Below are positions 26,729 to 32,609 of a stretch of DNA of 64,000 bases, piece by piece; the first letter of the stretch is position 1, and the number at the start of each line of letters is the position of its first letter. The notes beneath the pieces are model-generated. The model was not told where the DNA came from, made no database searches, and worked only from the letters and a program-made list of their open reading frames with translations. Origin of the DNA: Tequatrovirus BCH953P4; the sequence record OZ035789.1. One strand, 5' to 3'. The position numbers were made by a program, and so were the translations under genes.

Positions 26729-26971
26729 TTATTCCTTAATTCCTAGTACTTGTTTAAAAGTCTCGTCGTAATCAAGACTTTGGCCCGTTTGTTCTTTATG
26801 TTTGTATATAATATCACTTACTTCTGATAGCATATTTTTATATGAACGAGTTAAAGCAGATTTAAGCACGCTGTATCTATCAGGAAATTTACCATGTTCA
26901 TTATAATAAGCTATTGCTAATTCACGGACTGCTTTTTCAGCAATCTCCATACATTCTTTACGCTTGGTCAT
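26729..26971 (-). CDS. small hypothetical protein (start taken at internal Met)
   Basis: 80 aa from [13 protein letters not shown]; the longer ORF would overlap the upstream gene. Confidence 0.45.
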
Positions 26972-27275
26972 TTTCTTCTCTCTCAAATCGATGTTTGCAA
27001 TGACGGCATTTATAACGAAGATTACTAGTCTGCCAATGGACCAATTGCACCTGTTCAGTTCCACATTCAGGGCAATTAGGAACGTTTTTAGAAGCGCGTT
27101 CGCGGCGTTCAACCATAACCATAATGGCATCCCAAGCAGGAGGTTTAAAGTCTAAATCATCACAACCATGAATCTTTCCACGCATTTCCAAATCGTCTTC
27201 TTCACCGGACATAATAATTTTAATTAAACTGGAATTACTTGAAGCTGCAATGTCTTCTAATAGACGCTTTTTCAT
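26958..27275 (-). CDS. hypothetical zinc-ribbon protein
   Basis: 105 aa; CPECG...CRHCKH four-cysteine motif. Confidence 0.55.
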
Positions 27276-28249
27276 TTCAATACCTCAATAGCATTACGTA
27301 AACCATTTGCTTTTGCATTAAGAGCTTTTAACAATTTGGTGTGTTCTGCAATTTGGGCTTCAACTTCAATCAAACGAGCATTGAGATATTCGCGTTCTTC
27401 ACTCAGATTATCAACCTTTTCTACTTTAGGTTCTTTTACAACTGGCTTATACGTATTAGGGTTCTTCAGTTTAATTAGAATGCGTGAACTGTATAACATT
27501 GAACCATTATCTTCGGTTTCATCATACATTTCTACTACGTCCATGATTTTTAACATCATGCGAAGTTTATAAGACAACGAACGAATAGTTTTGTTGTGCT
27601 TATTAATTTCTCTAGCTGTCATGGTGCCGAGATTACGTGAGTAATAATAAGGAACCTGGATATTAATTAATACTGATGAACCACCTGGCTTGTGTGTTAC
27701 TTCATCAGCAATAACCCAGTCCTTAACATGAACTGTATTTGTACGGTCATCGCCAGCGGTAAACAGTTTGCGAGCATGCTTAAAAAGCATATTCACTTGA
27801 GTATTGAATTGACAAGCAAATTTATCAGCAAATTTAGTTTCAGGAATGGTAGATAACCAATCAGCCAAATGGGTCTTTTTAACATCGTTAATAATAGTAA
27901 ATTCAACCAAATCAGTTATAGATGTCGCAGTTTTAATGAAGCTCGGCTTCATAAAGTTTTTAATGTTATCACGAGCTACAGTAGAAGATAACATACGAGA
28001 ACGTTTAAACCATTCAAGCAAATTGCCCAATGAATGAGAATAGGCGTTCTGAGTATCTTTACAGATATGATTTTCCTGGCCAACATATTGAAGGAAATCA
28101 CGAAGAATATTATTGATTACTGCTCTGTGTCCTATCTGATAATTACGGTGTTTAGTAATAAGACTATCAAAATAATCAATATAATGTTTACGAGTCATAT
28201 TAATCTCCTCAGTAGAAAGTAAGAACATTATACCACATCCTTGTGGCAA
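27272..28249 (-). CDS. hypothetical protein with C-terminal KPV-plus-coiled-coil module (paralog family member 1)
   Basis: 325 aa; C-terminal heptad-repeat segment preceded by NPNTYKPVVKEPK. Confidence 0.6.
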   Translation of the reverse strand: MPQGCGIMFLLSTEEINMTRKHYIDYFDSLITKHRNYQIGHRAVINNILRDFLQYVGQENHICKDTQNAYSHSLGNLLEWFKRSRMLSSTVARDNIKNFMKPSFIKTATSITDLVEFTIINDVKKTHLADWLSTIPETKFADKFACQFNTQVNMLFKHARKLFTAGDDRTNTVHVKDWVIADEVTHKPGGSSVLINIQVPYYYSRNLGTMTAREINKHNKTIRSLSYKLRMMLKIMDVVEMYDETEDNGSMLYSSRILIKLKNPNTYKPVVKEPKVEKVDNLSEEREYLNARLIEVEAQIAEHTKLLKALNAKANGLRNAIEVLK

Positions 28250-28255
28250 AGTAAA

Positions 28256-29278
28256 CTAGTTCAGTGCATTTAGTGCATTGTTCAGTTTAGAACGTTGCTT
28301 CGTGAGATTTTTGACTTTTTCTTGAGCTTTTTCTAACATCTTTTCAGCTTCTAACACTTCATTAGTTGCTTTAACGAGTTCATCATCTACTGCCTTGATA
28401 GACTTCTCAATCGCATCCGCGTGCCATTTTTCAACAGGTTTAAGACTCGGATTTTCAACAGGAAGAAAATTCACTTTATTGAATTTCCATGCATCCTTAT
28501 TACCTGAACTATACATCCAAAATTTAGGATCGTTTGATGAGTAATTAGATAAATTTAAGTTATCTTGCACTTCCTGCTTTTTCTCTTGCGGGACTTCGTC
28601 CTTTCTCAAAAAATCGTATTTAAATGAAACGATCATATCAAGTTCATACGTTGTTGTGTCTAATTTAAATCGCTCAAAACGAGGTAAAATCTTAGACTGA
28701 ACAGCGGCAACAACATCCATATACTTAAATGCTTCTGTCAACTGCGATTTAAGGCATTCGCAAATTGAAAGAGAATTTTTTGTATTAGGTTTAAAGCTAA
28801 TTCGTGCAGTTCTGTTATTTTCTTTTAATGGTCTTACTTCCATCTGAAGAGTATAACCATCAAATTTCAGGTTCTTTAAGTTAATGTCAGAACCTTTTAA
28901 TCGACTAGCCGTGGACAAAATTTGCTTTAATTGTTTACGGAATAGAGCAATAAATCTCCATTCAATACGATAATGATTTGGATTGAAAAATCCAGATGAT
29001 AAATTAACCTTACTTTGACCAACGCCTTGAACAAATAGAGGATTTTTATAATCAATAGTTTTACAGAAATCGGTGAGCTGCTCACGAGCAGTCATTTGCG
29101 TAATATACCCTGCTTTACTAAAATTACGCACCCATTCACTGCTATTCGTATACTTAAAGTGATGAATAACACGATTAACTTTATCAGGGTCTAAATTATT
29201 TTCACACAAAAATGTCATAACATCACGAGTATAGCTGGCATTACGAACCATATCTTCAATTTGAGAACGAGTTTTCAT
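28256..29278 (-). CDS. hypothetical protein with C-terminal coiled-coil module (paralog family member 2)
   Basis: 340 aa; C-terminal NPSLKPVEK followed by a coiled coil. Confidence 0.6.
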   Translation of the reverse strand: MKTRSQIEDMVRNASYTRDVMTFLCENNLDPDKVNRVIHHFKYTNSSEWVRNFSKAGYITQMTAREQLTDFCKTIDYKNPLFVQGVGQSKVNLSSGFFNPNHYRIEWRFIALFRKQLKQILSTASRLKGSDINLKNLKFDGYTLQMEVRPLKENNRTARISFKPNTKNSLSICECLKSQLTEAFKYMDVVAAVQSKILPRFERFKLDTTTYELDMIVSFKYDFLRKDEVPQEKKQEVQDNLNLSNYSSNDPKFWMYSSGNKDAWKFNKVNFLPVENPSLKPVEKWHADAIEKSIKAVDDELVKATNEVLEAEKMLEKAQEKVKNLTKQRSKLNNALNALN

Positions 29279-29286
29279 GGTGTTCC

Positions 29287-30198
29287 TTAAGATTTAAGTA
29301 AATCAACAATTTTAATTAACTTTTCACGCTCAGATTTAGCTTTACTACTCAGTCCAGATAGTCTGAAAATTTCATCATCATACTGTTGAATAGAAATATT
29401 CAGCTCTTCAATTTGCTTATTAAAATAATCAATTTGTTCAGAATGTTTTTCATTACTACGAACTGGTACAGGTTTTGTAGGCAATTTAGTTGAACTGGAT
29501 TCATCCGGGCGATAAATTAAAATACAATTTGAACCAATCGGACATTTAGCACCAGACACATATTCTAATGTTCCAGCTTCTTTTAAAACTTCAAAAGCTA
29601 AACAGAGATGATGCCCCATATTAACATAATCTGTAGAGCGAGCTCTGATATAATAATCATCTCCACGAGTGCTAAATTTAAAGCATTTAAGGTCTTCTGT
29701 ATTATTAGTTTTAAAAATCATTTGTTTATCTAGACCTTTAGCTAATCGAGCGCCTAATGCTAATAATCGTCGTTGATTTTCCCACAAATCCGCAATCATT
29801 TGATCGAATGATAATTTTGGCATTAGTCGACCATAAAGGTCATATCCTTTATTATAATTACGAAGGATTTCACTCGCATTAATACGAGATAATGCTCCAA
29901 TTTTATTAAGGGCTTTCATGATGCGATTAGATAAACTCATTCCAGACCCGTTTGTTCGCTGTAAATGTTTTTCTAATCCAAATCCAATATCAACTTTAAA
30001 CTTATCTAAAATTTCAGCATGAACATCTCTGTCAATAACATTCAAATCCAAAGTTGAGTTAAATCTATGAAAAAATTTATCTGGCTCTCCACGACGAAAT
30101 ACAGTCCATTCATTCATCATTTTTTTATTAACTAAAGATTTAATTACTGCATTGACATTATTAATTACTACTGACATATTTTCCTCACTCAATTTCAA
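29287..30198 (-). CDS. hypothetical protein with C-terminal coiled-coil module (paralog family member 3)
   Basis: 303 aa; C-terminal LPTKPVPV followed by a coiled coil. Confidence 0.6.
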   Translation of the reverse strand: MKLSEENMSVVINNVNAVIKSLVNKKMMNEWTVFRRGEPDKFFHRFNSTLDLNVIDRDVHAEILDKFKVDIGFGLEKHLQRTNGSGMSLSNRIMKALNKIGALSRINASEILRNYNKGYDLYGRLMPKLSFDQMIADLWENQRRLLALGARLAKGLDKQMIFKTNNTEDLKCFKFSTRGDDYYIRARSTDYVNMGHHLCLAFEVLKEAGTLEYVSGAKCPIGSNCILIYRPDESSSTKLPTKPVPVRSNEKHSEQIDYFNKQIEELNISIQQYDDEIFRLSGLSSKAKSEREKLIKIVDLLKS

Positions 30199-30592: not shown

Positions 30593-30647
30593 AATAATCT
30601 CAGTTAAAAGGGCTTAGAACCATTATACCATCCTTGGTATAAAGCGG

Positions 30648-31175
30648 TTATGCGAGTACCGTCTTTAACCGTTCTTCAAATTTCCGAATAGTGTTCTGGC
30701 GTTCAGCTCTTTGCTTTTTGTAAGTTTCAATACGCTCTGAAATGAGAGTGTATCGTTCATTTACTGATTCTTTCATAAAATCAGGAATTTCACGAGAAGC
30801 TTTAATCTCGTCAAATTTATCAATAACAGCTTGCTCTTCAGCAATTAAGTTATCATACATCAAAATATCTTTCTTGATGAACTCAATATCTTCTTGAGTT
30901 ACACGAGATAATTTAGATGCTTTATCCTTTTTGTACTGTTCGTTAGTATCACGAGACCAGTGTAATGTACGATTTTTATTCGTATTCTTGTAAATTTCTA
31001 CAATACCAATCTCATCAATAATAACGATCCAATTCCAACGAGATTTGTAAATTTGCCCTCCGTCAACCGTGATTTCACCTCCGATTGAGATGTCATTAAA
31101 GAACTTGCTTTGTGCTTCAGATTTAAATTTACCATCGTTGTAATTTACCAGGTTGAAAATATCTTTAGCGTTCAT
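30648..31175 (-). CDS. hypothetical protein with C-terminal coiled coil
   Basis: 175 aa from the internal Met MNAKDIF preceded by a GGAGG Shine-Dalgarno; the ORF-track N-extension overlaps a promoter. Confidence 0.55.
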   Translation of the reverse strand: MNAKDIFNLVNYNDGKFKSEAQSKFFNDISIGGEITVDGGQIYKSRWNWIVIIDEIGIVEIYKNTNKNRTLHWSRDTNEQYKKDKASKLSRVTQEDIEFIKKDILMYDNLIAEEQAVIDKFDEIKASREIPDFMKESVNERYTLISERIETYKKQRAERQNTIRKFEERLKTVLA

Positions 31176-31640: not shown

Positions 31641-32609
31641 TTATTTCAGAAGAGTAACCTCAGCGATTTCTTGCCAACCGTTTTTGTCGGTCATAATAAA
31701 GTCAGCAAGATAAAGAGCAGTACGCAGTGAAACATTACGTAAACGGTTAACATTGACTTTCATCCATGATAATGCTTTATAAGTTTCTTCATCAGAAAGA
31801 CCGCGCTTTTGCATCATGTCGGTTGAAAGAATAACATCTTCAACCCTGACCATAATTTCTTCATTAGTGTGAACACCCAAATCTAAATAAACTGAGCGGG
31901 ACACTAATGCTTGTAAATGTGGAGCAAGTTTAGTACCACGGTCTAATTCGCGGTCAATGTCAACGTTTGTGATAAAAACAATCGTTCCTTTAAATTCAAA
32001 CTCACGCTCAATGCCTTTTTCTTCTAAGTAAGAAGATGCGGTGCTCCAGCAGACTTTACGGGTCTCTCCAGTGTCCAGAGCAGCTTTCAGAAGATTAAGA
32101 ATGTCCATATCAGAGAAAACATCCACATCATCAATCAAAAGGACAGAATTCTCTTCACGATTATTCCAAAGCTGTTCATAAAGACCGATACCAGAGATTT
32201 TACCATTAATGCTTTTATACTCAATGTATCCAATATCATTTGCTTTATTTAAAGCTTTATCTAAAGAATACGTTTTACCAATACCTGCTGCTCCCGAGAT
32301 AATTAATGAACGAATGTTTCCGTTAATAATACCATTCGTCATCATTCCCATAACATTAAATCTTTTATTAATGCGGGTTTTCATATCTTCATACGATTCT
32401 TTAACTTCTTCAACTTTTACACCATCATATGAAATGTCTGATTTGTAAACCCAAACACCGCGACGTTTACCGTCAATTTCAACAAAAACTTTACCATCTC
32501 CTTGTGCATCTACCGGAGCATTATCTGGGAACCATTCGCCTAAGAGCTCAAAAGTTCCAGAGATTTCTTTACCGAAGTAGATACCCTTATTGATAGTTAC
32601 AGTTTTCAT
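31641..32609 (-). CDS. AAA+ / P-loop ATPase
   Basis: 322 aa; Walker A SGAAGIGKTY and Walker B VLLIDDVD. Confidence 0.7.
   Translation of the reverse strand: MKTVTINKGIYFGKEISGTFELLGEWFPDNAPVDAQGDGKVFVEIDGKRRGVWVYKSDISYDGVKVEEVKESYEDMKTRINKRFNVMGMMTNGIINGNIRSLIISGAAGIGKTYSLDKALNKANDIGYIEYKSINGKISGIGLYEQLWNNREENSVLLIDDVDVFSDMDILNLLKAALDTGETRKVCWSTASSYLEEKGIEREFEFKGTIVFITNVDIDRELDRGTKLAPHLQALVSRSVYLDLGVHTNEEIMVRVEDVILSTDMMQKRGLSDEETYKALSWMKVNVNRLRNVSLRTALYLADFIMTDKNGWQEIAEVTLLK

Follow-up and report, generated by a model that had tools for sequence, protein, structure and literature searches.

The three adjacent minus-strand open reading frames (ORFs) discussed here lie in a stretch of 64,000 nucleotides (nt) from Tequatrovirus BCH953P4 (sequence record OZ035789.1), hereafter the window, and were identified as the T4 early genes nrdC.3, nrdC.5 and nrdC.6. 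We consider it probable that they are three of the four full-length tandem paralogs, the fourth being nrdC.4, of an early counter-defence array located between nrdC and tk. The window is a segment of a T4-like (Tequatrovirus) genome, with the early block nrdD, 49, pin, nrdC and nrdC.1 to nrdC.11 on its minus strand, and the array belongs to the hyperplastic, non-essential early-gene block that extends from nrdC to tk in T4-like phages. The genes themselves are already annotated in T4; what is new here is that all four belong to a single family, in which the coiled-coil tail is conserved. The three genes of the window are the following (aa, amino acids):

27272..28198, minus strand: nrdC.3, 308 aa; full-length match to PHROG 1435 (phrog_1435), E=2.7e-117; orthologs carry PF26897
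28256..29278, minus strand: nrdC.5, 340 aa; Pfam DUF7235 (PF23882), PHROG 2351; ortholog of T4 NrdC.5, which counteracts Dsr1
29287..30177, minus strand: nrdC.6, 296 aa; PHROG 2257 (phrog_2257), E=1.4e-151; orthologs carry PF26899

The functional side of this reading starts from nrdC.5, described as an early gene by Srikant, Guegler and Laub (eLife 2022; PMC9391042). In that work, neither ECOR17 nor MG1655 with the ECOR17 dsr1 gene could any longer be plated on by a T4 clone with a compensatory gene deletion, and plating of the deletion clone on MG1655 with dsr1 was restored when nrdC.5 alone was expressed from a plasmid. Dsr1 is a SIR2 NADase fused to a tetratricopeptide repeat (TPR) sensor. 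According to a 2026 preprint (PMC12803255), this sensor, which Avs7 also has, detects the major capsid proteins of phages. The nrdC.5 of the window is 96% identical to T4 NrdC.5, keeps the same synteny between nrdC.6 and nrdC.4/nrdC.3, and matches DUF7235 with 431 bits (cut-off 30) over profile positions 1-307 of 307; it is the ortholog of that T4 gene. Both nrdC.3 and nrdC.6 share the architecture of NrdC.5 and are its homologs at the profile level, even though they are placed in separate families (PF26897/phrog_1435 and PF26899/phrog_2257, respectively) and have no DUF7235 match at E <=0.1.

The nrdC.3 to nrdC.6 gene family

The original prediction had described three consecutive ORFs bearing the linker peptides NTYKPVVKEPK, SLKPVEKWH and LPTKPVPV, all of which were found in their places, and had regarded the ORFs as a paralogous family with unrelated N-terminal parts of about 250 aa. 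The family is borne out by profile comparisons, which also correct the second half of the claim: with the coil removed, the N-terminal parts are homologous at the profile level (hhalign, 5.7e-13 to 3.2e-6).

A bridging family of five sequences entered these comparisons, namely PM2_092 (309 aa) and Merlin91 (334 aa), which are the lone syntenic members beside nrdC.2 in other T4-like genera, and P0198, P0199 and P0201, which came from an exhaustive search of 1.84 billion representative proteins. In hhalign, this bridging family aligned with nrdC.5 at 2.7e-16 over the full length and at 2.4e-11 once the coil was removed, with nrdC.6 at 6.2e-16 and 6.1e-9, and with nrdC.4 at 2.1e-7 and 2e-6; in the same order, the direct comparisons gave 1.6e-6 and 3.2e-6 for nrdC.4 and nrdC.5, and 7.4e-12 and 5.7e-13 for nrdC.3 and nrdC.4. 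As controls, the families compared at full length with nrdC.8, nrdC.10 or nrdC.11 reached P values of 0.08 or worse. All family alignments are colinear and run end to end, with nrdC.3 joined to the other families mainly via nrdC.4, to which BLASTP also links it (2e-5 over 273 residues); pairwise BLASTP among the three window proteins returned nothing significant. Since the coil-free profile alignments link the families end to end, the four genes are one gene family that arose by tandem duplication of the whole gene. Divergence was then fast in the N-terminal part, and most of all in its alpha/beta subdomain.

Three motifs are common to the four families in their joint alignment: LSRxxAxxxLxNFxK, F..N...LL..A.R and L..AL..M..VE. 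The plan shared by the members consists of an N-terminal helical subdomain, with the first of these motifs, a long helix, with the second, an alpha/beta subdomain, a linker and the tail. Within this plan the alpha/beta subdomain evolves fast, and the linker is disordered, rich in insertions and deletions (indels) and ends in a Pro-[VI] helix cap.

The AlphaFold2 models of nrdC.5 and nrdC.6 follow the same order of elements: both start with a helical bundle and a long helix, continue with a beta-hairpin, a helix and two strands, and close with the linker and the tail helix. When searched with Foldseek against BFVD, the nrdC.6 model found full-length matches in the 309-aa protein of PM2 (1.6e-4), the 334-aa protein of Merlin (7.9e-4) and two further proteins, one from Acinetobacter phage Acj9 (325 aa, 2.2e-4) and one from Yersinia phage fHe-Yen9-01 (313 aa, 5e-3). 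The N-terminal fold is tentatively predicted from low-confidence models, and the structural support for homology is weaker than the profile evidence, yet consistent with it. The nrdC.5 model gave, in the same database, only two full-length matches of low template-modelling (TM) score, from the T4-like phages CBH8 and Melville, which were not relied on, and a mixed three-family MAFFT alignment, which misaligns the nrdC.3 motif, was left out of structure prediction.

The whole superfamily amounts to 22 clusters at E <=1e-3 among the 1.84 billion representative proteins. A mixed-family profile search returned mainly nrdC.6 and nrdC.5 clusters, and word-indexed protein searches with nrdC.3 and nrdC.5 returned close orthologs only. 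Searches with nrdC.5, nrdC.3 and the nrdC.6 profile match no solved structure among all PDB chains (phmmer and hmmsearch) and no NCBIfam family. The syntenic neighbours Merlin92 and PM2_095 (261-262 aa) proved unrelated to the family. Many GenBank genomes label nrdC.3 to nrdC.11 'thioredoxin', apparently by propagation from the locus name nrdC.x; neither Pfam nor NCBIfam gives a thioredoxin or glutaredoxin domain match in nrdC.3, nrdC.5 or nrdC.6.

The C-terminal coiled-coil tail

Each of the three window proteins carries, as had been predicted, a heptad-repeat coiled coil after its linker: a Pro-containing linker is followed by six unbroken heptads that reach the C-terminus. The corresponding features are listed below, with the hydrophobic occupancy of heptad positions a and d (a/d occupancy) and, for the models, the predicted local distance difference test score (pLDDT).

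27425..27457, minus strand: nrdC.3 Pro/Lys-rich linker NTYKPVVKEPK (residues 248-258); varies between alleles (KFKPTPKPN in T4)
27275..27412, minus strand: nrdC.3 C-terminal heptad helix (residues 263-308); a/d occupancy 0.83, p=0.016; best-kept region between alleles (78-84% identity)
28439..28612, minus strand: nrdC.5 low-confidence, indel-rich linker (residues 223-280); pLDDT <50; gapped and variable in ortholog alignments
28259..28438, minus strand: nrdC.5 C-terminal long helix (residues 281-340), including the conserved QRSKLNNALNALN end; AlphaFold2, a/d occupancy 0.92, hhalign
29455..29514, minus strand: nrdC.6 linker (residues 222-241), including LPTKPVPV (232-239); pLDDT <50
29290..29454, minus strand: nrdC.6 C-terminal helices (residues 242-296), containing DDEIFRLSGL...EREKLIKIVDLLKS; AlphaFold2, a/d occupancy 0.83, hhalign

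The nrdC.5 linker terminates in a conserved KP[VI]E helix cap, with SLKPVEKWH spanning residues 278-286, and the linker motif [KE]P[VA]PVRSNEK of nrdC.6 is kept across genera. Over at least the last 42 residues of the window proteins, a/d occupancy is 0.83-0.92 in a single register, beyond what composition shuffles give (p=0.001 for both nrdC.5 and nrdC.6, p=0.016 for nrdC.3). The best register relative to the terminal L-K is identical in all 11 family tails tested, among them the tail of nrdC.4, those of orthologs in further genera and those of the single members in PM2 and Merlin; occupancy is 0.83-1.0 in 10 of these tails (p<=0.016), the remaining one being the nrdC.6 tail of the Mosigvirus phage moha (0.67, p=0.13). 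Every tail ends in L-x-x-A-[ILV]-x-x-L-[KN], and most carry (Q/E)RxKL one heptad before the end, with its Arg at an 'a' position.

Compared through their tails only, the bridging family aligned with nrdC.5 at E=7.2e-9 and with nrdC.6 at E=6.7e-10. Direct tail-only comparisons between the paralog families gave P values of 0.001-0.09, always flush with the C-terminus, and the coil of nrdC.8, used as a control against any family, gave P values of 0.006-0.33. In the single-chain AlphaFold2 models, the nrdC.5 tail is one 59-residue helix (281-339) whose block-mean pLDDT rises to 93, and the nrdC.6 tail is formed by helices 242-272 and 278-295 (pLDDT 81-89), preceded in both cases by the low-confidence linker. 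The C-terminal module that had been proposed as common to the three proteins therefore holds up as more than a likeness of composition, given its conserved register, flush profile alignments and bridging links, and the C-terminal helix is a genuine shared module.

Between genera, the tail is the best-conserved region of every family, and the alpha/beta subdomain or the linker the least; tail identity is 35-39% in nrdC.5, against 13-32% elsewhere in the protein, and 58-71% in nrdC.6, against 19-48% elsewhere.

Two further observations concern tails. The nrdC.6 of the T4 reference NC_000866 (L003 9067-9894) encodes 275 aa with a frameshifted tail ending in ...ELIFLFNNMMMKFSDYLD, whereas T4 GT7 (L001 6341-7231) and all other phages have a 296-aa nrdC.6 with a complete coiled coil; the short form comes either from an error in sequencing or from a tail truncation specific to that strain. 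Besides, nrdC.8 (30648-31175, minus strand; 175 aa) also has a heptad coiled coil near its C-terminus, and was rejected as a fifth family member, its hhalign scores being at background.

Alleles, rearrangements and the loss of nrdC.4

By tblastn in the phage collection, nrdC.6 was found in 740 records, nrdC.3 in 652, nrdC.5 in 580 and nrdC.4 in 554. The sampled Gaprivervirus and Dhakavirus phages have nrdC.4, nrdC.5 and nrdC.6 together, the Mosigvirus phage moha has nrdC.3, a diverged nrdC.5 and nrdC.6, and PM2 and Merlin have one family member each. Within Tequatrovirus, nrdC.3 has two allele classes, only 60% identical, although the phages that carry them share about 95% identity elsewhere, and the identity between them falls to 49% in the alpha/beta subdomain and 33% in the linker, against 78% in the tail. 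The window carries the class found at 95-99% identity in 312 records, and T4 NrdC.3 (L003 5934-6860) is about 60% identical to it.

Rearranged members were also found. Manna_094, from Salmonella phage Manna (L014 4215-5252), is an in-frame chimera of nrdC.6(1-269) and nrdC.4(252-333), joined at a stretch around 'DEI' where the two genes have 21 nt in common, with nrdC.5 and most of nrdC.4 deleted. P0033 is a fusion of nrdC.5 and nrdC.3, and in phage Pinarejo nrdC.6 is reduced to its last 47 codons. P0193 (173 aa) is identical to the nrdC.5 tail in its last 53 residues, and its first 120 or so match nothing in the phage collection, so that it could be either a real tail transfer or a chimera of metagenome assembly.

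The array of the window has itself lost a gene. T4, WL-3 and most relatives have nrdC.4 (333-335 aa) between nrdC.5 and nrdC.3, and the window phage is without it. Two features mark the site:

28188..28198, minus strand: nrdC.4 deletion junction at microhomology ACTCGTAA; the first codons and upstream sequence are those of nrdC.4, the remainder those of nrdC.3
28227..28255, minus strand: early-type promoter with hairpin, possibly PeSL-like (promoter-early stem-loop); TTTACT-17-TATAAT with extended -10 TGgTATAAT; 10/12 matches plus TG in the promoter scan

The 57 nt upstream of the window nrdC.3 are identical to the upstream region of T4 nrdC.4, and the gene thus carries the nrdC.4 promoter, Shine-Dalgarno sequence and first codons, with the switch in codons 2-4 at the microhomology (28188-28255, to be compared with L003 6861-6914 and 7917-7973). 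KFS-EC3, EC121 and HY03 are among the 25 phage records, out of 582 matching ones, that have the same contiguous junction, and the loss of nrdC.4 is therefore a natural polymorphism and not an assembly artefact.

Regarding the gene bounds, those predicted at first stand for nrdC.5, but nrdC.3 and nrdC.6 had been extended to upstream TTG codons that are not real starts. Translation of nrdC.3 starts at the ATG at 28198, after a GAGGAG Shine-Dalgarno sequence and downstream of the early promoter, whose -10 box is overlapped by an earlier in-frame ATG; nrdC.6 starts at the ATG at 30177. Because both start at downstream ATGs, the gaps had to be revised to 7 nt between nrdC.7 and nrdC.6, 8 nt between nrdC.6 and nrdC.5, and 57 nt between nrdC.5 and nrdC.3. 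Tight tiling consequently applies to the first two gaps but not to the third, which has its own promoter inside.

The nrdC.3 promoter, in its context GTTTACT-17-TGgTATAAT (28255..28227), holds within its spacer the hairpin CCACA-AGGA-TGTGG, with 5 bp and an AGGA loop. PeSL cassettes of T4-type phages (in the accounts attributed to Arbiol, 2010, and Comeau, 2014) are reportedly recombination-prone and are said to mediate gene shuffling. The 57-nt spacer of nrdC.3 may be related to them, as it combines a promoter and a hairpin in a hyperplastic region with gene turnover; it differs in that the hairpin sits inside the promoter spacer and the nrdC.4 deletion junction falls in the first codons, outside the cassette. 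The sequence TTTACT-17-TATAAT fits the PST/T4 PeSL promoter consensus, TTTACW-N17-TAYWAT (PMC4122927), with the hairpin placed inside the spacer and the region hyperplastic, the published layout having been compared only broadly. Hairpins with an AGGA loop also precede nrdC.7 (about 30600-30640, minus strand) and T4 nrdC.3, as TATACCA-AGGA-TGGTATA and AGCCA-AGGA-TGGCT, and each of the three overlaps or abuts a TATAAT-like -10 box and is PeSL-like in look.

Proposed counter-defence role, alternative explanations and neighbouring genes

In the mechanism that we propose, the proteins of the array would be made early, from sigma-70-type promoters, before the late proteins that trigger the host sensors appear. 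Their variable N-terminal part, above all the alpha/beta subdomain, would bind a host defence protein, and NrdC.5 would probably occupy the Dsr1 sensor ahead of the late capsid protein. The coiled coil would make the inhibitor oligomeric, raising its avidity for oligomeric targets, or would dock a common partner. We infer that nrdC.3, nrdC.4 and nrdC.6 encode counter-defence proteins as well, with other targets and specificities. The array bears what would be the signature of an arms race, namely unequal paralog counts, two nrdC.3 allele classes, deletions, chimeras and a tiny superfamily; duplication, allele replacement, deletion and in-frame fusion would be its traces.

Two known systems offer a comparison. 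SPbeta-like Bacillus phages encode DSAD1, an anti-DSR2 protein that disarms a sensor-fused SIR2-NADase by binding to its sensor, as would be the case for NrdC.5, and cryo-electron microscopy structures of DSR2 with DSAD1 have reportedly been obtained. However, the target of DSAD1 is DSR2 rather than Dsr1, the host belongs to another clade, and no sequence similarity was found, as nrdC.5, nrdC.3 and the nrdC.6 profile hit no DSAD1 or DSR chain at E <=1 among all PDB chains (phmmer, hmmsearch). The T4 dmd-tifA-adfA 'anti-TA (toxin-antitoxin) island' is likewise early, non-essential, fast-evolving, part of a hyperplastic region and subject to copy-number change by recombination, but it is made of unrelated small inhibitors, whereas the nrdC array consists of paralogs of one family of about 300 aa with a common tail.

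Several points weigh against this proposal. The anti-Dsr1 activity belongs to the T4 protein, of which the window gene encodes an ortholog with 96% identity; direct binding of NrdC.5 to Dsr1 is suggested by analogy with DSAD1/DSR2; and the literature searched gave this phenotype as the only functional result, with nothing but genome annotation for nrdC.3, nrdC.4 and nrdC.6. That the tail oligomerises or docks is a prediction from sequence and single-chain models, and the latter, built from family-only alignments, are weak (mean pLDDT of 63 for nrdC.6 and 51 for nrdC.5). For nrdC.6, the model folds the tail into a hairpin, which could be an intramolecular antiparallel coil, and the nrdC.3 and nrdC.4 tails alone link weakly (P of about 5e-4 to 1e-3), about tenfold better than controls in which coils were compared with coils.

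Other accounts have been considered for the likeness among these proteins. Unrelated recognition domains might have been shuffled onto one mobile C-terminal oligomerisation or docking module, as could be thought from the lack of significant N-terminal BLASTP matches among the window proteins and from the natural in-frame tail swaps of Manna_094 and P0193. We hold this to be very improbable and largely refuted, since the coil-free profiles link all four families end to end, the N-terminal motifs are common to them and the nrdC.5 and nrdC.6 models have the same secondary-structure order; the Manna fusion, for its part, joins non-equivalent positions and looks like the product of a deletion and not of module exchange, and P0193, whose N-terminal part has no counterpart in the phage collection, may have arisen in assembly. 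The slimmest chance is that of a convergent tail, a generic Lys/Glu-rich amphipathic helix uninformative on ancestry or function. Even though the direct comparisons between paralog tails are weak and the nrdC.8 coil reaches P=0.006 against nrdC.6, all families keep one register when counted from the C-terminus, all tail alignments are flush, the bridging sequences tie the nrdC.5 and nrdC.6 tails, (Q/E)RxKL and the ending A[IL]xxL[KN] are held in common, and the proteins are homologous over their full length anyway.

A different function for the same proteins seems improbable too, that is, that they are structural or fibrous virion components or early DNA-binding regulators, with an indirect effect of nrdC.5 on Dsr1. 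Coiled coils are frequent in phage fibres and scaffolds, a direct block of Dsr1 by NrdC.5 is a proposal, and residues 29-99 of nrdC.3 (27902-28114, minus strand) show a weak likeness to the SAM-like core-binding domain at the N-terminus of tyrosine recombinases (Pfam Phage_int_SAM_1, E=0.087; NCBIfam PRK00283, E=0.001), a match kept as a lead only. These recombinase-like matches are nevertheless far under the curated cut-offs (18 bits against 279), and the PHL matches of nrdC.3 are also far below theirs. Moreover, the genes lie in an early non-essential block behind early-type promoters, they are dispensable, with frequent deletions among natural and laboratory phages alike, the window proteins match no structural family of PHROG or Pfam, and plasmid-borne nrdC.5 is enough by itself to restore plating when the host has Dsr1 (PMC9391042).

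If the array is a set of paralogous counter-defence genes, full-length paralogy with nrdC.5 gives three candidates, nrdC.3, nrdC.4 and nrdC.6, together with a structural hypothesis in which the alpha/beta subdomain provides specificity and the coiled coil assembly. T4-like phages are central to phage therapy and to defence research, and most genes of their hyperplastic regions are without an assigned role; the presence, absence and allele classes of these genes over hundreds of phages represent a natural experiment relating genotype to host range. A further extension, which we regard as unlikely, would make the array an expandable set of inhibitors on one scaffold, with tail-mediated assembly and alpha/beta subdomains that each neutralise a different defence. 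The conserved tail, with the buried Arg of (Q/E)RxKL, could then let paralogs self-assemble, cross-assemble or dock a common partner, and the targets could be alleles or families of sensor-fused defences, such as Dsr1 and proteins with an Avs7-type TPR sensor. Were this true, the wild E. coli strains open to infection by a phage would be determined, legibly, by its repertoire of paralogs and alleles.

Among the neighbouring genes, nrdC.10 (31641-32609, minus strand) has sub-threshold matches to NTPase domains of the AAA (AAA_14) and STAND (nSTAND3) types. On the other side of the array, the start codon of nrdC.2 (26958..27275), a gene with several zinc-ribbon matches, overlaps the stop codon of nrdC.3 in an ATGA at 27272-27275, which suggests translational coupling.

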